Below are positions 23,093 to 32,008 of a stretch of 44,851 bases of DNA, one piece after another. The position numbers were made by a program, and so were the translations under genes. The stretch comes from a virus (Duplodnaviria; Heunggongvirae; Uroviricota; Caudoviricetes): positions 1-44,851 of the IMG/VR virus record IMGVR_UViG_2974654489_000001. The stretch is one strand, 5' to 3'. Position 1 is the stretch's first letter, and each line of letters opens with the position of its first letter. The notes under the pieces are model-generated. The model did not search any database. It was not told the origin of the DNA and saw nothing but the letters and a program-made list of their open reading frames with translations.

Positions 23093-25468
23093 ATGTCAAT
23101 CGGATGTGGTGACGTTTTAAGCCTGGTGGATTTGCAAACCGCCAAGAAGCACCAGATTTTCGAAGCCGAGGTTATCACCGGAAAATCCGGTGGTGCTGCA
23201 GGTGGTGCGGATATCGATTACGCGACAAACGCCGTTACGGGGCAGACACAGAAGACGTTACCCGCTGTGTTGCGTGATATGGGCTTCTCCCCCGCATCAT
23301 TTGATTTTACTACAGGAGGTACAGTTACGCAGCGCGACACAGTGGTGTATAACCCCGCTGACAATAACTGGTACTCCTGGTCTGGAACGCTGCCGCGGGT
23401 TGTAGCCGCAGGGACTGACCCCACTACAGACAGTAACTGGAAACCTCGCACAGACCAGTTATTACGGCAAGAATTGGCGTCGGAACAAGCTGGTGTTTCC
23501 GGGGGGACATTGGTCCGTGTAGAGCCTGGAGTGGCTCCTGTGGTATGGGGTGAAAGGTCAGTAAAGAATTTGATATTAGATGGCAAAGCTGGGTTACGTA
23601 AAAACTTTGGCGCACTTGGGGACGGGGGTGCGACTGATGGCGGAGAGAAAGACACCAAAGCGATAGAAGACGCTCATCACGCCATGATGGATGTTCTTTA
23701 TCGCCGCCGCCCGGCTGAGACGGATGAAAGCACAATCAGTTTTATGCTACAAAAAGGCCCAGGCATTCTCTATGAGAATGGTGTGTATAAATATAACGGC
23801 ACCGGTTTAAATATATCGGCAGGGGATACCTTTATTTTAAATGTCAGGGGCGAAAGCGCTTTGGGAACTAAAATACTGTTGCCGGATGGTGTATATCTTT
23901 TCGATTTTGATAACAACCCCGTATACTCTCATTTATCAAACATGACAATTCATGGTGGTCTTGGTGCGGTTAGGTATAAGGCAAAAACGCGAATCACTGG
24001 TGATTTTCACGTATTTAGCGACCTTCGGCTTTCTCGTTTTACCGAGTGCGGAATTAGTAATAATGCAATTGATATGCCTTGCTTTCGGGTGGAGCGTAGT
24101 CGGTTCTACGGTGCTACCGCGTCTCAGCCAATCGGCGTATGCGTCAGCGGTCTTTCAGCCGGTGGGTACATTCGGGATTGCCTTTTTAGCGATTTCAGGT
24201 ACGCCATTAAGTTAGCTGTCGGGGATAACGGTACAGAACGCAACGGCCCCGCCACTCCGTTCAACATCGAAGACAACGACTTCTACCGCACAGGCGCACG
24301 CAGCCCTTCAGCATCTTATGATGTGTGGATCGAGCCTGGGGCAACCACTAACAACGCAGGTCGCGCCATCCGGTTTGCGGGTAATAAGTTCGGGCAAGAA
24401 AACCTGATTACACCCGATGCACATGTGCTCATTGCTGATAGCACTACCGGCAGCGGATTAAACTTAAACGGGGACCGGGCGCATGTCGAAACGCAATCCA
24501 CGGGTTTCGTATCGGGATTGAGATTTGAAGGTAATAACGTTAACTCCAGTAATGCGGGGTATATTGCACCGTTCTTGAGAAGTTTTACACCTAATCTAGG
24601 AAACTGCTATTTTTCTGATATTTATGACAACGATATGCCGTCGCGCATTATTGAGTTTGCAGGCGGGATTACGCAATCACAGGTAACGAATCTTACCCGT
24701 AGTAATGTGTTTAATGCAGGGCAATGCCTGGCATTACAGGAAGGCGGGGAGCCTAAACTCCTTAGCAATTTAAATGGCGTCTTTGGTATCGAAGACCCAT
24801 TGCATTACTATTCTGGGCATCCTCAGTCAACATATTATCCAGTTGGTACTGCTAAGATAGATTTTGTATCACTGTTTTCTGCGGAAACTTCAACGCTAAC
24901 GGTCGCTGACGGCAGTAAAACCGCTGTTCCTTGTTCGTATGGCGCACCTTCCGAAGCAGTGGAGATTACTATGTCTGCGTCAACGGGGCGGTTAATTCAA
25001 ACAGTATCAGGTCTTATCGCCAATAGAAAGGCTTGGTTGGATGTTGAGGTTAAGCGCGGGTCGGCAAATTCAGTGCAAAGCGTAAAAATAGAAATATTAG
25101 ATTCTACAGGCTCGATTATATGGCTTCGTAGAATAATTTTGCTCGACTCCCTGTCAAGGTGGCAAAAAGTAACACTACCGTTTGTGCCATCGGCAGCAGG
25201 TAATTGTATAGTTAGATTCAGCGCAGCAGCTACGTACTCCGCTGGTTCTTCCACTAATTTCATAGTTGGTAATCTTAATGTGTATCATAACGATACGCCT
25301 ATTTCTACAGGACTTAATAGTGGACTAAGTTCTAACTGGGCACGGCAGCACAATATCATGGGTACTATGCACGAATGGTATGATGCTTCTGGTAATAAGA
25401 GAGCTAAGTCAGGTCAACCTCTATCCGATACGGATGGGGTTATAATTAGCGCAAACGTGACACCGTAA
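23093..25468 (+). CDS. Tailspike / receptor-binding protein with beta-helix (pectate-lyase-like) domain
   Basis: 791 aa; FGALGDGGATDG...DTKAIEDA motif typical of right-handed beta-helix depolymerases; last tail gene; AT-rich C-terminal third. Confidence 0.6.
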   Translation: MSIGCGDVLSLVDLQTAKKHQIFEAEVITGKSGGAAGGADIDYATNAVTGQTQKTLPAVLRDMGFSPASFDFTTGGTVTQRDTVVYNPADNNWYSWSGTLPRVVAAGTDPTTDSNWKPRTDQLLRQELASEQAGVSGGTLVRVEPGVAPVVWGERSVKNLILDGKAGLRKNFGALGDGGATDGGEKDTKAIEDAHHAMMDVLYRRRPAETDESTISFMLQKGPGILYENGVYKYNGTGLNISAGDTFILNVRGESALGTKILLPDGVYLFDFDNNPVYSHLSNMTIHGGLGAVRYKAKTRITGDFHVFSDLRLSRFTECGISNNAIDMPCFRVERSRFYGATASQPIGVCVSGLSAGGYIRDCLFSDFRYAIKLAVGDNGTERNGPATPFNIEDNDFYRTGARSPSASYDVWIEPGATTNNAGRAIRFAGNKFGQENLITPDAHVLIADSTTGSGLNLNGDRAHVETQSTGFVSGLRFEGNNVNSSNAGYIAPFLRSFTPNLGNCYFSDIYDNDMPSRIIEFAGGITQSQVTNLTRSNVFNAGQCLALQEGGEPKLLSNLNGVFGIEDPLHYYSGHPQSTYYPVGTAKIDFVSLFSAETSTLTVADGSKTAVPCSYGAPSEAVEITMSASTGRLIQTVSGLIANRKAWLDVEVKRGSANSVQSVKIEILDSTGSIIWLRRIILLDSLSRWQKVTLPFVPSAAGNCIVRFSAAATYSAGSSTNFIVGNLNVYHNDTPISTGLNSGLSSNWARQHNIMGTMHEWYDASGNKRAKSGQPLSDTDGVIISANVTP

Positions 25469-25485
25469 GGTGGGTTAAATAAAAC

Positions 25486-25511
25486 TAAGGCCCCGTTCGG
25501 GGCCTTTTCTC
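25486..25511. terminator. Bidirectional intrinsic terminator (AAGGCCCC-GTTC-GGGGCCTT)
   Basis: GC stem, A tract upstream, T tract downstream, between convergent operons. Confidence 0.7.
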
Positions 25512-25648
25512 TACTCTTCTGGTAGCTTCTCCAGCACAAACGCCAGTTGCGCATTAGCGGCATCTCTCTGTTGTCGTAGTCGTAGAACCTCCTCTTCGAG
25601 TTCCTTGATACGTTTTTGTAATGCCGGAATGGGGGCTATGATGTTCAT
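25511..25648 (-). CDS. Small coiled-coil protein (45 aa)
   Basis: ATGA overlap with upstream gene, GAGGA RBS; below ORF track cutoff. Confidence 0.35.
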   Translation of the reverse strand: MNIIAPIPALQKRIKELEEEVLRLRQQRDAANAQLAFVLEKLPEE

Positions 25649-26160
25649 CTGGTAAATTTCCTCGCAAGATACGTTATTTCTTCTTCACAAAGTTCATCAA
25701 GGTCGTTAGATACAAATCCTCTGGTGAATGTTTTGCTGAACTTTAATCCAGCTTTATCATTGTCGCCCGCGCACACCCAGTCATATGGCAAAAGTGACAT
25801 TTGCTGCCGTAGGTCGGTTGATAAATTCGACCCCAGTGCGCTTACGGCATTGAACCCGCAATTCATCAAGGCTACGGCTTTGAATATGCTTTCGGTAACA
25901 AATACCACCCCGCGCTCCGGCAAATACTCAAGCCCCCATAAACACGGCCTTGTTGTTCGGGTAAAGTACCTCGCGTCTTTAGGGTTTTTACAGTTCTTTT
26001 CCGCATGTGGTTTGTAGTGCTGGTATCCGCGAAGCCTACCGTCAAACCCCCACAGGTAAAACGTAGCTACTCCAGAGCCTAAGACTACACGTAAACGGTC
26101 CGCGTCAAAACCTCGTGACAGCAGATGCGCCTTAAGTAGTAACTCCTCGCAATCCATCAT
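25645..26160 (-). CDS. Toprim-domain protein
   Basis: VVFVTES (Toprim Glu) and CAGDNDKAG (DxD) motifs. Confidence 0.55.
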   Translation of the reverse strand: MMDCEELLLKAHLLSRGFDADRLRVVLGSGVATFYLWGFDGRLRGYQHYKPHAEKNCKNPKDARYFTRTTRPCLWGLEYLPERGVVFVTESIFKAVALMNCGFNAVSALGSNLSTDLRQQMSLLPYDWVCAGDNDKAGLKFSKTFTRGFVSNDLDELCEEEITYLARKFTR

Positions 26161-27593
26161 TTCTTACTCCTTCTCTTCATGTAATTAAGCAATTCTTCCT
26201 GCACCGATCTCTTCTCGTCTGTACGCGCGGCAACAACCTCGTCCAGTGTGTCTTTAGCAACGATGTGATAGAGGAACACTGGTCGCTCGTGGCCCGCCTG
26301 TTTCTGACGGACCGGGCCTATACGCTCCACGACCTGTAAATAGTGCTCAAGGTTCCAGCCTTGCGAGATGAATGCCAGATGATGCCCGCCGTCCTGTAAA
26401 TTCAAACCATGCCCGGCTGACGCAGGGTGCACGCATAGGATTTCGATTTCGCCACGGTTCCACGCTTCCATCTGCTTATTGCCCTTAGCGCCTTTGGCAA
26501 ACGCCCGGGCCTGCGGGAATCGTTTAAGGATGCGCTCCAGTTCGTGCTTAAACTGATAGGCCACCAGTAACGGCGCGCCCTGCAACTCCTCCACAATTGA
26601 CTCAAGCGCATCCAGTTTCGTGTCGTGCACTTTCTCCCAGTCTTTCGTCGCTTCGCCGTCGTCGCCCGTCACATACACGGCACCAGATGCAATCTGCAAA
26701 CACTTCGACGTCTTCGCTGCCGCGTTAGCCGCTTCAACTTCCCCGCTCTCCAGTTCCGCGAATAACTTTTCCTCCATATCGATGTACGCCTGACGTGCTT
26801 TCTTCGGCAGGTCGATTTCAACCGGCACAATAATCGGCGCTTCACAACCAAACCACTCGGCGGCGTCAATCGTCAGGCTGATGTCCTTCATCTTCTGGTG
26901 AATTTCATTATCCGCACCAGGGCGCGCATGATACTCACGTGCCATCGCGGATTTGCCTTTCTGTACCGAGTTAAACCAGCGGTCGGTGAACGCTGTGTAC
27001 GAGGAACCCAGGCGCTCGCCCGCGTCGATAAACCAGTTCTGACCCCACAAGTCTTTGAGGCCGTTCGGCGACGGTGTACCCGTCAGGTTAATGAAACGCT
27101 TAACCTTACCGAATGCCACTTTGCTAAGCGCCTTTGCCCGCTTGCTACCCCCAGAACGGCTGCGGAATGATTTCAGCTTCGTGCTCTCGTCGGCAACGAT
27201 AACGGTAAAAGGCCAGTCGTCTTTGCCGTAGTAGTCGATAAGCCATTCGATAACTTCGTAGTTCGTGCACACCACGTTAGCGTCTGATTCCAGTGCCGCG
27301 ATGCGTCGCTTCTCTGAACCAGTCGCATCTACGACGCTCAGACATGGGAATTGCCATTTCTCTTGTTCTGCGGGCCACGTACCCGACGCAACGCGCAGCG
27401 GGGCGAGGATTAACACTCGGTCGTCATCATTAAGTTGGCCGTTGCGGAACAGTCGGTTTAACACCCACATTGTCGACGAGGTCTTGCCGCCGCCCATACC
27501 GCACCAGATATTGCAACGTGGGTGCTGTAGCATGAACGAAGTCATGAGTTTCTGGTACTCGCGCCTTTTAAACTTAGACATGATTGGCCTCAT
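26157..27593 (-). CDS. SNF2/DEAD-like ATP-dependent helicase
   Basis: Walker A CGMGGGKTSS, motif II VIVADEST, C-terminal helicase domain. Confidence 0.8.
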   Translation of the reverse strand: MRPIMSKFKRREYQKLMTSFMLQHPRCNIWCGMGGGKTSSTMWVLNRLFRNGQLNDDDRVLILAPLRVASGTWPAEQEKWQFPCLSVVDATGSEKRRIAALESDANVVCTNYEVIEWLIDYYGKDDWPFTVIVADESTKLKSFRSRSGGSKRAKALSKVAFGKVKRFINLTGTPSPNGLKDLWGQNWFIDAGERLGSSYTAFTDRWFNSVQKGKSAMAREYHARPGADNEIHQKMKDISLTIDAAEWFGCEAPIIVPVEIDLPKKARQAYIDMEEKLFAELESGEVEAANAAAKTSKCLQIASGAVYVTGDDGEATKDWEKVHDTKLDALESIVEELQGAPLLVAYQFKHELERILKRFPQARAFAKGAKGNKQMEAWNRGEIEILCVHPASAGHGLNLQDGGHHLAFISQGWNLEHYLQVVERIGPVRQKQAGHERPVFLYHIVAKDTLDEVVAARTDEKRSVQEELLNYMKRRSKK

Positions 27594-28257
27594 AAACTGC
27601 TTTTGCGAAACCCCGCGGGGTAAGGCTGCGGATTGTTTTTGTCCTCACCGATTTACCGCCTAATTTATTGTGTTGGTCAGAGTAACCGCCAACCACGGCG
27701 ACACATGATTTAACGGGCATCACAAAACCGTTACCCGCCCAAATACATGTCTTCTTAGGGTACGCGTCCCGCGGTTTTATGTATTCAGGGAACATTGGGT
27801 GCGTGTCGTCTTCGGGTAAATAGCCGCCGTATTCGTATGGATTGAACGAGTAGTCAGGCTTACGCCATAAAGACGAAAGAACGCTAACAGGGTTCTCAAT
27901 CATATAAGGTACGTTGTACTTTTTAGCCAGACGCGCAGCCACTTTGCATGTAACCACGGCCTCTACCTGAAAAGTTGGGTTCTTCTTCCGCTTCGTTTCG
28001 AAATGAGCCGCGCCGCTAACGGCTAAATCTGTACACGGAGGGAACGCAAAAATAATATCTGGCGCAACCTCGAAGTCAAACTTATTATCAATCCACGCGT
28101 TTATATAGTGGATGTTCTCGTGTTCAACTTTTGCGCCCAATCGCGCATAGTTGCCGTGGTCTGCGCCGTCGTAGTTGAAACAATAGCAAGTATGGCCCGC
28201 TTCCGCCCACGGTTGGGCCATGAGGCCCGAACCGTCGAACAATGACCAGATAATCAT
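27574..28257 (-). CDS. C5-cytosine methyltransferase-like protein (truncated architecture)
   Basis: Motif I LFDGSGL, motif IV FPPC, motif VI-like IENPV; only 227 aa, no obvious target recognition domain. Confidence 0.45.
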   Translation of the reverse strand: MIIWSLFDGSGLMAQPWAEAGHTCYCFNYDGADHGNYARLGAKVEHENIHYINAWIDNKFDFEVAPDIIFAFPPCTDLAVSGAAHFETKRKKNPTFQVEAVVTCKVAARLAKKYNVPYMIENPVSVLSSLWRKPDYSFNPYEYGGYLPEDDTHPMFPEYIKPRDAYPKKTCIWAGNGFVMPVKSCVAVVGGYSDQHNKLGGKSVRTKTIRSLTPRGFAKAVYEANHV

Positions 28258-28445
28258 TTCGCCACCAGAACTAACTCTTTACGCCCAAACGCTGTAACGT
28301 TACCGGTTACGTCTTCAATAACCAGTTTACCGTTCGACTCGACGAACACCGTATCAACGGCAACAGGCTGGCGTGTCTTAACGTTGAAAATCATGTCGCC
28401 TGGTACGATGTCACGTGCTGGTTTGCGGTCGTATTCGTGTTTCAT
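28254..28445 (-). CDS. Hypothetical protein
   Basis: 63 aa, AAGGA RBS, overlapping stop with downstream gene. Confidence 0.5.
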   Translation of the reverse strand: MKHEYDRKPARDIVPGDMIFNVKTRQPVAVDTVFVESNGKLVIEDVTGNVTAFGRKELVLVAK

Positions 28446-28475
28446 TTCTCAATTCCTTATATTGTTGGTGTAGGA

Positions 28476-28763
28476 CTAACTATAATAGTTCGCTATTAGG
28501 TCGTCAACCTGTTTAAACGAACCGACGACAAAAACATTTGCACCTCTTTTACGCATCCGCTCGTGCTCGCGTAACTGGTGGGGGTCGGGCTTCGTGTTTT
28601 CGTCTTTCTTAACCTCAACGAACCAGACGATGCCGCCGGGGAGAATTACCAGCAGGTCAGGAGCGCCGGAACGTCCTTCGTAGGAAAGTTTACGAACGAG
28701 GCCACCAAGGGCCTCGAATCGCTCTTTTGCGTATTTCTGTATTTTGCCCTCAGGCGTACTCAT
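28476..28763 (-). CDS. VRR-NUC domain nuclease
   Basis: GAPDLLVILPGGIVWFVEVKKDE matches the VRR-NUC / PD-(D/E)XK signature. Confidence 0.7.
   Translation of the reverse strand: MSTPEGKIQKYAKERFEALGGLVRKLSYEGRSGAPDLLVILPGGIVWFVEVKKDENTKPDPHQLREHERMRKRGANVFVVGSFKQVDDLIANYYS
28479..28507 (-). promoter_or_regulatory. Leftward sigma70-like promoter TTGACG-17 bp-TATAGT with AATAG-TTCG-CTATT in spacer (28484-28497)
   Basis: Embedded in the 3-prime end of the VRR-NUC gene; same architecture as promoters at 32077-32105 and 34776-34805. Confidence 0.45.
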
Positions 28764-28848
28764 CTACACACCCCTCACGTTTCGTATGCTCAACCCCATA
28801 GCGCGGACAGATTCGACAGTCTTCTTCGTAGAACCAGTAAATTTTCAT
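28750..28848 (-). CDS. Micro-ORF, Cys-rich (32 aa)
   Basis: MKIYWFYEEDCRICPRY...; ATGA overlap with upstream micro-ORF and overlap with VRR-NUC start. Confidence 0.25.
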   Translation of the reverse strand: MKIYWFYEEDCRICPRYGVEHTKREGCVDEYA

Positions 28849-28976
28849 TCCAGCACCCACAGATAAATTGCTACTAACATACCCAATACAGCGACCATCA
28901 TGCCATATTGACCCTCGTGACAGTAGACACCGGCGGCAAATCCCGCCAGTACCGCGATAATCAGTTTACTTGGCAT
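28845..28976 (-). CDS. Micro-ORF, hydrophobic membrane peptide (43 aa)
   Basis: MPSKLIIAVLAGFAAGVYCHEGQYGMMVAVLGMLVAIYLWVLE; start overlaps the DNA polymerase stop region. Confidence 0.3.
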   Translation of the reverse strand: MPSKLIIAVLAGFAAGVYCHEGQYGMMVAVLGMLVAIYLWVLE

Positions 28977-31167
28977 AACGTTTTAACTCCTGACCTTCCG
29001 CTACAAGAGGGAACCCCTCGGCCCATTCTGGTAATTCGCACATTAATTTTTCCAGTTCGGCCACCGTGTACTCGGGGGTATCTGGAGTTTCACATACCAA
29101 TTCATCGTGTACCGAAAGCACGATGGGATACCCGCCGCGGTCAACGTTAATCATCGCATACGCAAGTAAATCACGGCACAGCGCCTGAACAATGTTTTCA
29201 CAGGCTTTGCCGCCGTGTGTGTACAGGGTGGTCCATTGGCGGGTTAACTGATTTTCGCCCTGATACTTGATTCGGACATTCGTGTTTACCCGTCCGTCTT
29301 CGTCTGTTTCCTTTGTCACACTAACGCCGATTCCCGGATACGAGAGGATGCGACCTGACGGCAACTCCATACATAACCACCAACCAGGAACCTTCCTACC
29401 GGATGAATCAAATTCTACAGTACGCCATATGCGGATAGCCCTTTCACCATTCCTGCGCAAGTGTGCCCCCGCCCAAAATTCACGACCAGGATTACGAACA
29501 GCAGCTAAAATTCCGTCTTTAAGGTCGCGCCAGAAAGCTACTGTTTCAGGGTGGGACTCCCGCCACATACGCTTGATAGCGTCGCAGGTACGCCACACTT
29601 TCTTATCAAGAATATACGATGGCCGGTCATCCTTTTCACCCGGATGTGGTGGCCGCTTGGCTTCCTGAATACGCGCCCACTCATACCCACGTGCGGTAGC
29701 GGCCCAGATGTGGTCAGGGAATGTACCGTCCATTGTTTTTGCCATCTCGATAAGGTCAAGACCTAAGTTTTTAGCGAACGTAACGAACGCTCCGACGCCC
29801 CCCTCATAGCCGAGGCCCAGTTCGCATGCCTTACCTATCTGTCTGATTTCCTTGAAGTTTTTCTTAATATCGTCAGGGTCCATGCCGAACATCTTACCCG
29901 CGGTTACACAGTAAATATCCAGTCCAGCGCGGAAAGTATCGAGCGCGGTTTCTTCACCAGCCAGCCACGCAAGCCCCCGGCCTTCAACGTTCGAGTAATC
30001 GGCGACGACAAACTTATGCCCTGCTTCCGGAATGATGCAGCTACGAACCGTCGATGCCGTTAGCTTGGCTACATCAAAACGGCGATGAGCTCGACCCTTA
30101 AGTAACGCTGAAATGCCTTTATCCAGTTCATCATCGTGATAGTAACCGCGCGCCAGGTTCTGCGGCTGAAAGCCTTTACCCGCCCATCGCAGAGTGCGTT
30201 TTGCCCCGCCGTACTGCAAGCAACCACGACGGCGGTCGTCAGACGAGCGGCCCAACAGAAGCGGGTTATATTTCGTTGACGCTGTGGACGCGGCCCCGAG
30301 GCGCATTTCGATAATTGTGCGTGCGTCGTCCGGTAAATCATCGTCAGCCAGCAGGTCGTTAAGCGTCGACTTCTGTGCGTTATGGATGCGGTGCGCGGGG
30401 GCCAGTTCACGCAGAATCGGCAGAAAGTCCTTACCCGTAAGCGAGCCGCCGTATTTGCGTTGGGCTTCTTCCTGTAACTGTGTCTTGTGCTTCTCTACGG
30501 CTTCAATCGCGGCTTCCGCCAGTGCGACGTCAACCTTAAACCCTCGGTCGTTGATTAACTGGTCCAGTTCCAGTACCCGGTCCTCGAACTCGGAGTTACC
30601 CCAACGTGGTAGCTTATGGAAGACTTCACGCATTGCGGTGATGTCGCTGACGGCGTACTTGATGAACAGCGCCCACTCGTCCGGGTGCGTTTCGGCGGTA
30701 TAGCGGCGAATTTTGTAGTTCTTCGGTGTCGGTTTAGAAAAACGCTGAATCAGCGCCTTGCCGCGTTTATCTTTTGCATTGTCCGCAGATACACCCAGCA
30801 CTTCGCACAATGCATCAAGTGAACCCGGCAGCGCGTGGCGAAACGCCCAAATCATCGTATCAATGGTGTTGCTTACCGGGATGTCAAAACCCCAGCAGTG
30901 CTTCATGATTAACCTATCGAACATTGAGCCGTTGTGCCATACCATCTTGATGCGGCTGTTCGGTTTAACCAGACGGCGTAGCGCGCGGTGTAAATCACCT
31001 GGCATGTCGCTGCCGTCGGTGCAATCCCATACCCGCACAGGCTCGTCGTCAAAAGCATATGTGCAGATAAGCACTTCGGTTGACGGGTGTTCGGCGTAAG
31101 CGTAGGAGCCGACTTTCTTTAAATAGGCTTCGGAGAATGTTTCAAAGTCCAGGTATAAGTAGCTCAT
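28966..31167 (-). CDS. Family A DNA polymerase with 3-prime to 5-prime exonuclease domain
   Basis: Exo I motif LDFETFS; polymerase motifs DYSNVEGR (A), KACELGLGYEGG (B), VHDELV (C); ATG 31167 after AAGGA RBS (track ORF starts at TTG 31221). Confidence 0.85.
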   Translation of the reverse strand: MSYLYLDFETFSEAYLKKVGSYAYAEHPSTEVLICTYAFDDEPVRVWDCTDGSDMPGDLHRALRRLVKPNSRIKMVWHNGSMFDRLIMKHCWGFDIPVSNTIDTMIWAFRHALPGSLDALCEVLGVSADNAKDKRGKALIQRFSKPTPKNYKIRRYTAETHPDEWALFIKYAVSDITAMREVFHKLPRWGNSEFEDRVLELDQLINDRGFKVDVALAEAAIEAVEKHKTQLQEEAQRKYGGSLTGKDFLPILRELAPAHRIHNAQKSTLNDLLADDDLPDDARTIIEMRLGAASTASTKYNPLLLGRSSDDRRRGCLQYGGAKRTLRWAGKGFQPQNLARGYYHDDELDKGISALLKGRAHRRFDVAKLTASTVRSCIIPEAGHKFVVADYSNVEGRGLAWLAGEETALDTFRAGLDIYCVTAGKMFGMDPDDIKKNFKEIRQIGKACELGLGYEGGVGAFVTFAKNLGLDLIEMAKTMDGTFPDHIWAATARGYEWARIQEAKRPPHPGEKDDRPSYILDKKVWRTCDAIKRMWRESHPETVAFWRDLKDGILAAVRNPGREFWAGAHLRRNGERAIRIWRTVEFDSSGRKVPGWWLCMELPSGRILSYPGIGVSVTKETDEDGRVNTNVRIKYQGENQLTRQWTTLYTHGGKACENIVQALCRDLLAYAMINVDRGGYPIVLSVHDELVCETPDTPEYTVAELEKLMCELPEWAEGFPLVAEGQELKRYAK

Positions 31168-31319
31168 TTCTTTTTCCTTAAATCCAGTTCCTTCGTTTCG
31201 CTTAATCTTATTTTCATACAATCACGGCAAATCCACACATGCCTGTACCCAGCCCGGTACTCATCTGCATACCACGGAAGCGGTTTCATATAGCGGTAAA
31301 CGTGCTTACAGAAAAACAT
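31164..31319 (-). CDS. Small Cys-containing protein (51 aa)
   Basis: ATG 31319 after AAGGGG RBS; ATGA overlap with polymerase start; CKH...CRDC. Confidence 0.4.
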   Translation of the reverse strand: MFFCKHVYRYMKPLPWYADEYRAGYRHVWICRDCMKIRLSETKELDLRKKK

Positions 31320-31337
31320 TATTTTCGACCCCTTAGT

Positions 31338-31365
31338 AAAAAGGCCCAATAAAGGGCCTAGTTAA
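31338..31365 (-). terminator. Terminator-like hairpin (GGCCC...GGGCC) followed by T run on the minus strand
   Basis: Hairpin directly downstream of gene 31379-32008. Confidence 0.4.
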
Positions 31366-31378
31366 ATTGATTCAGATA

Positions 31379-32008
31379 TTAGCGGCGACGACGTTCGCGG
31401 CGTGGTGCAGCATCTTCTTCGTCGTCTTCCAGGTCGTCAGTGCTCGCTACTACACTGGAGCCGCCGAAGCGTTTACCTTCACCCATATACTTGATGCCGA
31501 GGATGGTAGCGCACAGGTTTTTCCAATCTTTGTGCCACCATAACTCTACAGATACGTTTGCGACACATCCGCTATATACCTGCTCGCCTTCTATTTCCTT
31601 CCCGTCGATGTTGAAATCAGGCTCGGTTTGTTTTTCGCCTTTAGCCGATGTCATAATCACAGGTTGTCGGTTGTTAGTAGCGCGGAAATACAGACCTTCT
31701 TCAAAATCTTCAATCGGATTGTCGCGCATTGCCAGGTCACGGACGCAGCATTTATCAGCATGGTGGTCTTCGCCGTAGTTCGCCTTCATCCATTTCTCAG
31801 CAGCAGCTGCCCCGATCGCCTCTGTTACAACTTCCAACGCGGTATCATAAAGCGCATCAATTTGAGGATGGTCAGGCTGCATAAGAACCGTAACCTGATA
31901 TTTGCCCTTAATCAGTTTACCGGTTTTCTTGTCCTCAGAATCAGCAGCGCGTTCGAATACGTTAACCCATGCAGTGTTTACTTTACGCAGATTCAGTTTA
32001 ATACCCAT
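31379..32008 (-). CDS. Putative ssDNA-binding protein (T7 gp2.5-like) with acidic C-terminal tail
   Basis: Ends ...GGSSVVASTDDLEDDEEDAAP; located in replication module. Confidence 0.45.
   Translation of the reverse strand: MGIKLNLRKVNTAWVNVFERAADSEDKKTGKLIKGKYQVTVLMQPDHPQIDALYDTALEVVTEAIGAAAAEKWMKANYGEDHHADKCCVRDLAMRDNPIEDFEEGLYFRATNNRQPVIMTSAKGEKQTEPDFNIDGKEIEGEQVYSGCVANVSVELWWHKDWKNLCATILGIKYMGEGKRFGGSSVVASTDDLEDDEEDAAPRRERRRR

Follow-up and report, generated by a model that had tools for sequence, protein, structure and literature searches.

A compact Dcm-like C5-cytosine methyltransferase, probably active, in the replication gene string of a Kagunavirus genome

The IMG/VR virus record IMGVR_UViG_2974654489_000001 was analyzed over its whole length of 44,851 nucleotides (the window), with attention to a minus-strand gene at 27574..28257 that encodes a 227-residue protein. 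This protein is very probably an active, stand-alone (orphan) S-adenosylmethionine (SAM)-dependent DNA C5-methyltransferase of a compact phage family (PHROG 757, "Dcm-like"), as judged from its sequence, a structural model, and analogy with a characterized relative. The original prediction, made from the DNA letters, had offered three interpretations: a compact anti-restriction methyltransferase, a DNA hypermodification enzyme, or a non-catalytic derivative. Homology, fold, and catalytic residues support the compact methyltransferase, for which an anti-restriction role is probable; hypermodification and loss of catalysis are unlikely, given the 5-methylcytosine (5mC) product of a homologue and the conserved catalytic residues. 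For the window protein itself, activity, a part in anti-restriction, and the target sequence are inferences. The object is already known: an identical protein already has an annotated database entry, PHROG 757 covers the family, and one characterized member shares 56% identity with the window protein. The finding is thus real but ordinary and adds little scientifically, and the residual interest lies in the recognition sequence of the compact family and in the exchange of a sequence cassette between close phages.

The link to a characterized enzyme runs through the Escherichia coli phage KarlJaspers (Bas06, MZ501090), whose protein bas06_0055, annotated as a "Dcm-like C5 cytosine methyltransferase," is 56% identical to the window protein over the full length (E 8e-96). 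The window protein matches gp14 of SECphi27 equally well. The KarlJaspers gene and that of gp14 each comprise 711 bp (236 aa), and both carry C82, E128, K175, and K176 at the positions that were mutated in the enzyme of phage K42. K42 is a KarlJaspers/Bas06-like phage, and every one of its mutants that escapes retron Ec86 disrupts the 711-bp Dcm-like gene (10.1101/2023.08.16.553469; Wang et al., Cell Rep 2024;43:114857). In that work the wild-type K42 Dcm was toxic only alongside Ec86 and a C82A/E128A/K175A/K176A mutant was non-toxic, while liquid chromatography with mass spectrometry (LC-MS) found high 5mC in the multicopy single-stranded DNA (msDNA) with the wild-type enzyme only (10.1101/2023.08.16.553469). 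The four residues correspond to C75, E121, K168, and K169 of the window protein, where all are kept. Homology together with these four conserved residues indicates that the window protein belongs to a family with a characterized representative, and by analogy it would form 5mC, as shown for K42 Dcm. The KarlJaspers and window genes each lie near a helicase gene in a virulent E. coli siphovirus, although the lineages differ: KarlJaspers and K42 belong to the Drexlerviridae and the window to Kagunavirus within the Guernseyvirinae.

The open reading frame (ORF) is genuine. In the ORF listing, 227 codons with an ATG start plus a stop fill 27574..28257 exactly on the minus strand; read on the plus strand, this interval contains many stops. 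The product matches PHROG 757 ("DNA methyltransferase") across residues 1-226 (E 2e-86), and this match and the wide homology exclude a chance ORF. Homologues were found by tblastn in 1,520 phage records, with at least 80% of the query covered in 1,473 of these, among phages of Escherichia, Klebsiella, Salmonella, Shigella, Vibrio, and Arthrobacter and in groups that include the Drexlerviridae, Dhillonvirus, and Webervirus. A large protein database holds 7,190 homologous clusters at 90% identity, and an exhaustive search of representatives returned 1,241 clusters at 50% identity with E <= 1e-3 (558 with E <= 1e-10). Nearly all homologues are 210-260 aa long, as is the single-domain window protein, which has no separate lobe for a target recognition domain (TRD).

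Among the relatives, WWY66510.1 ("methyltransferase") of Escherichia phage vB_EcoS_UTEC10 is 100% identical to the window protein and stands in the same gene order, namely polymerase, nuclease, small ORF, methyltransferase, and helicase. The other Kagunavirus proteins are 81-98% identical, and labels on relatives, Kagunavirus and Dhillonvirus entries among them, read "DNA cytosine methyltransferase," "putative C-specific methylase," or "Dcm-like C5 cytosine methyltransferase." A few family representatives are fusions (P0261, 414 aa; P0262, 453 aa; P0243; P0250; P0256), in which the methyltransferase domain is C-terminal and follows N-terminal extensions of 30-200 aa. Homologues about 59% identical also occur in 37 records labelled as Campylobacter phages (for example MG065644.1, "Campylobacter phage A147," 143 kb); such closeness is unexpected for so distant a host, and wrong labels or contamination of the records, or a recent transfer, could account for it.

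The three motifs named in the original prediction are all present and in canonical order. Conservation was followed in two family alignments of 36 (A1) and 67 (A2) members and in a profile of 186 near-full-length members; all motif coordinates are on the minus strand. Motif I, LFDGSGL (residues 6-12; 28222..28242), forms the SAM-binding FxGxG loop after strand beta1; F7, G9, S10, and G11 are invariant in A1, and hhalign pairs the segment with FAGIGG of E. coli Dcm. Motif IV, FAFPPCTD (residues 70-77; 28027..28050), carries the putative catalytic Cys75, equivalent to C82 of the K42/KarlJaspers enzyme, and the TDLAVSG loop after it is strongly conserved. In motif VI, MIENPV (residues 119-124; 27886..27903), Glu121 is the counterpart of the ENV glutamate and matches E128 in K42 Dcm; neither E121 nor P123 varies in A1 or A2. 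A motif VIII-like PKKTC (residues 167-171; 27745..27759) lies on a beta strand and holds K168 and K169, the counterparts of K175 and K176 of K42 Dcm; for K168, conservation is complete in A1 and at least 90% in A2, and for K169 it is at least 90% in A1. A motif X-like RSLTPRGF (residues 210-217; 27607..27630), with R210, S211, L212, and R215 invariant in A1, runs into the C-terminal helix and is among the most conserved blocks of the family profile. Overall, motif I and the four residues C75, E121, K168, and K169 are invariant or nearly so in both alignments. The most conserved blocks of the 186-member profile are 71-85 (FPPCTDLAVSG), 121-125 (ENPVS), 131-135 (WRKPD), 166-175 (YPKKTCIW), and 211-220 (SLTPRGFAKA), and the most variable ones are 56-65 (the highest entropy), 181-200, and 101-115.

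Since the sequence links to solved structures are weak, a comparison of folds was needed instead. An AlphaFold2 model built from the 36-sequence alignment was confident (predicted local distance difference test, 89.3; predicted template modeling score, 0.89) and consists of a single Rossmann-type domain, with a strand at 170-175 and a helix at 215-225. The predicted fold is that of a C5-methyltransferase. Confidence is low only at residues 79-82, just past the PPC motif. Solved C5-methyltransferases have a mobile catalytic loop, and such a loop would fit this low-confidence stretch of the model. DNMT3B, M.HhaI, M.HaeIII, and M.MpeI scored equal to or above the Dnmt2 matches in the fold comparison. 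The FDGSG (7-11), PPC (73-75), and ENP (121-123) motifs follow one another in canonical order, and in profile alignments their register agrees with that of M.HaeIII and of E. coli Dcm.

The protein was described at the outset as far shorter than Dcm-type enzymes, and this is borne out by its 227 aa against the 472 aa of E. coli Dcm. Canonical enzymes (M.HhaI, M.HaeIII, and the catalytic domain of DNMT3A/3B) are approximately 100-250 residues longer than the window protein. Judged by aligned versus chain lengths, about 48 residues lie beyond the shared core in the window protein versus about 110-150 in DNMT3B or M.HhaI, which indicates that it has no separate TRD lobe. Likewise, about 37 residues separate the motif VIII-like strand from RSLTPRGF, where a canonical TRD has about 80-200 aa. 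E. coli Dcm (b1961, M.EcoRII-type, CCWGG) belongs to the same reaction class and shares the name "Dcm-like" in annotations. Orthology with it was considered and rejected: BLASTP gave E 0.39 with the PC motif alone aligned, hhalign gave a probability of 1.9%, and the window protein has no NCBIfam match. The hhalign alignment places motifs I to VI in the correct register at this negligible probability. In the absence of detectable homology to E. coli Dcm, "Dcm-like" is a functional label and not a statement of orthology.

The earlier statement that no TRD is obvious holds for a separate lobe, but a short hypervariable segment does occupy the TRD position. Residues 181-200 vary in sequence and in length and sit after the motif VIII-like strand and before the motif X-like block. 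They form part of a variable cassette, residues 151-205 (27643..27807, minus strand), which flanks motif VIII and is a candidate miniature target recognition segment. In those Kagunavirus-type proteins that share 88-96% identity with the window protein in residues 1-150 and 90-100% in residues 206-225, residues 151-205 come in two discrete alleles. Type A (FPEYIKPRD...GGYSDQHNKLGG) is carried by the window, by P0001-P0003, and by phages LM02P1 and PDP21P8. Type B, found in most other Kagunavirus copies, is just 55-65% identical to type A within 151-205, and Klebsiella phages carry further loop types. The DNA of the gene agrees with that of Kagunavirus BCH953P1 at 90-98% identity in nucleotides 1-458, at 53-67% in nucleotides ~459-635, and at 83-93% downstream. 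This drop confined to nucleotides ~459-635 is the signature of a localized cassette replacement.

The swapped alleles may be the one new detail in this otherwise described family. It is possible, though on present indications doubtful, that residues 151-205 are a miniature exchangeable recognition cassette whose alleles differ in specificity, so that the type A enzyme of the window would methylate a site other than that of K42 Dcm. On this reading recombination shuffles at least two such alleles between Kagunavirus methyltransferase genes that are nearly identical elsewhere. If so, the window enzyme might escape methylation-sensing defenses such as retron Ec86 or trigger different ones, and few sequence-specific C5-methyltransferases with an exchangeable module for recognition would be smaller.

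Several observations weigh against the reading of the window protein as an active C5-methyltransferase with the properties of its characterized relative. The hidden Markov model of canonical enzymes, PF00145, does match the N-terminal 96 residues (3-98 only; E 0.005) but scores 16.7 bits, under the gathering score of 22, and only 3 of the 67 family members reach E 0.01. NCBIfam gave no match at E up to 10, and neither the single protein nor the 36-member profile found a PDB sequence at E <= 10; the 67-member profile gave marginal PDB matches only, among them M.HaeIII and DNMT2 over motifs I-IV (E ~0.5-0.7). Motifs VIII and X are non-canonical, with PKKTC for QxRxR and RSLTPRGF for GNxVP. As for the relative, CCWGG as the site of K42 Dcm was presumed from the name Dcm and is backed solely by mutation of a CCTGG in the msDNA stem, and the assays were run in dcm+ MG1655, where control msDNA kept low 5mC (10.1101/2023.08.16.553469). 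The K42-type enzymes of KarlJaspers and SECphi27 carry type B ("DNPGWAKTGG"), whereas the window carries type A ("GYSDQHNKLGG"); because the window allele differs from the characterized one, neither specificity nor triggering of Ec86 can be transferred with confidence. Finally, methyltransferase genes were not found to track restriction resistance in any simple way among the Drexlerviridae of the BASEL study. Literature on the methylome or restriction of Kagunavirus or Drexlerviridae C5-methyltransferases offered generic annotation statements only.

An active C5-methyltransferase remains our preferred reading, and its mechanism can be proposed from the C5-methyltransferase fold and the conserved residues. 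The FDGSG loop would bind SAM, the target cytosine would be flipped out, and Cys75 of the PPC motif would attack C6 while Glu121 of the ENP motif contacts N3/N4. Lys168 and Lys169 may stand in for the canonical arginines of motif VIII, and the hypervariable segment at ~151-205, with its peak at 181-200, would replace the large TRD and is the probable reader of the DNA sequence. Co-transcription of the gene with polymerase, helicase, and primase genes is probable, in which case phage DNA would be methylated by the enzyme as it replicates. The likeliest benefit would be protection against host restriction enzymes, and a cost known for the family is that methylation can trigger abortive infection by retron Ec86 (Retron-Eco1). 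The gene is the only recognizable DNA-modification gene of the phage, and it is relevant when Kagunavirus is considered for therapy, as a predictor of sensitivity to restriction, to type IV methyl-dependent nucleases, and to sensors of the retron Ec86 type.

The same chemistry could have been selected for another role, such as marking or regulating phage DNA when it is replicated, packaged, or transcribed late, or changing host DNA or the nucleic acids of host defense. A dcm gene is present in E. coli K-12, and Dcm is common among E. coli and Salmonella hosts; since hosts often own Dcm, a phage enzyme for CCWGG would often be redundant. Such a role would also sit well with the linkage of the gene to replication genes and with a Kagunavirus transcriptome study that placed the methyltransferase in the late class along with the polymerase. 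Against it, the compact phage C5-methyltransferase family has no known regulatory role, and orphan phage methyltransferases are classically anti-restriction. Moreover, the putative recognition segment is swapped discretely among near-identical phages. This pattern resembles diversifying selection on specificity, which fits a restriction arms race better than a fixed regulatory site. On this evidence we consider a role outside restriction improbable.

Much less probable still is that the C5-methyltransferase fold serves another substrate or cofactor, either in DNA hypermodification (for example, carboxymethyl transfer) or as a Dnmt2-like RNA methyltransferase. The msDNA product of the 56%-identical homologue was 5mC by LC-MS, which speaks against hypermodification, and UTEC10 has no annotated accessory hypermodification genes. 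An RNA substrate is disfavored by the fold comparison, in which the DNA methyltransferases matched no worse than Dnmt2. That the protein is a degenerate fold retained to bind DNA or to act as a decoy, as its shortness, its sub-threshold Pfam score, and its non-canonical motifs VIII and X might suggest, is hardly credible, because relatives down to ~35% identity show no change, or conservation of at least 90%, at Cys75, PPC, ENP, and the SAM loop and because the K42 homologue is catalytically active and loses function as the C82A, E128A, K175A, K176A quadruple mutant.

Counts of restriction sites were compared with those expected. GATC occurs at 11 sites in the window versus ~153 expected under a maximal-order Markov model, an observed-to-expected ratio (O/E) of 0.07. 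The ratio is 0.03-0.08 in four other Kagunavirus genomes, including UTEC10, and 1.00 in the Dam-encoding KarlJaspers; UTEC10, the closest relative, has no annotated Dam-type methyltransferase. This contrast between Kagunavirus and the Dam-encoding KarlJaspers shows that the site-avoidance approach has power. AAGCTT, GGGCCC, and GGTACC are absent from the window versus 9-12 expected, and GCCGGC and GGCGCC have an O/E of ~0.2.

For the Dcm-type sites, two Tempevirinae with type B enzymes, KarlJaspers and Sephi301i, showed CCSGG at O/E 0-0.17 (2 versus 12 and 0 versus 5 expected) and CCWGG at 1.03-1.05. Kagunavirus genomes of type A and type B alike gave CCWGG at 0.73-0.75 and CCSGG at 1.09-1.15. 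An assignment of CCWGG to type B and of a CCSGG-covering site to type A was dropped, as both Kagunavirus alleles share the same ratios; the CCWGG/CCSGG pattern thus follows lineage and not allele. In the Webervirus Alina, GGWCC was observed 0 times versus 25 expected. The CCSGG and GGWCC depletions look like lineage-specific avoidance of restriction sites.

The gene had been placed in a replication operon, and the neighborhood agrees: the methyltransferase is co-oriented with its neighbors and overlaps both, and the same string holds a polymerase, an SNF2 helicase, and a Toprim protein. Upstream, a 63-aa ORF (28254..28445, minus strand), which has no Pfam match and is hypothetical in UTEC10, overlaps with its stop the methyltransferase start by 4 nucleotides (ATGA), which suggests translational coupling of the two. 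Downstream, the SNF2-family helicase gene (26157..27593, minus strand; Pfam SNF2-rel_dom, E 5.8e-12, and so annotated in UTEC10) overlaps with its start the 3' end of the methyltransferase by 8 or 20 nucleotides, depending on the start codon chosen, and encodes 474-478 aa. Pfam identified the family-A DNA polymerase (28966-31221) and the Toprim protein (25645-26160), both on the same strand as the methyltransferase. Two small ORFs of this string are conserved and have no detected function: the 63-aa ORF and a 43-aa ORF at 28845-28976 (minus strand) that looks hydrophobic.

A megablast search with positions 25000-31500 returned 461 phage records, mainly from Salmonella and Escherichia phages, of which the top-ranked was UTEC10 (Kagunavirus) at ~90% nucleotide identity. 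Apart from the replication genes, the 3' stretch (~25000-25480) of a 791-aa tailspike-like ORF (23093-25468, plus strand) was unmatched at the nucleotide level in the 25 closest relatives listed, whose alignments start at query position ~476 or later, that is, at ~25476 of the window. The tail spike gene of UTEC10 is also shorter (1,836 nt). This suggests that the end of the tailspike-like ORF is a swapped receptor-binding module.

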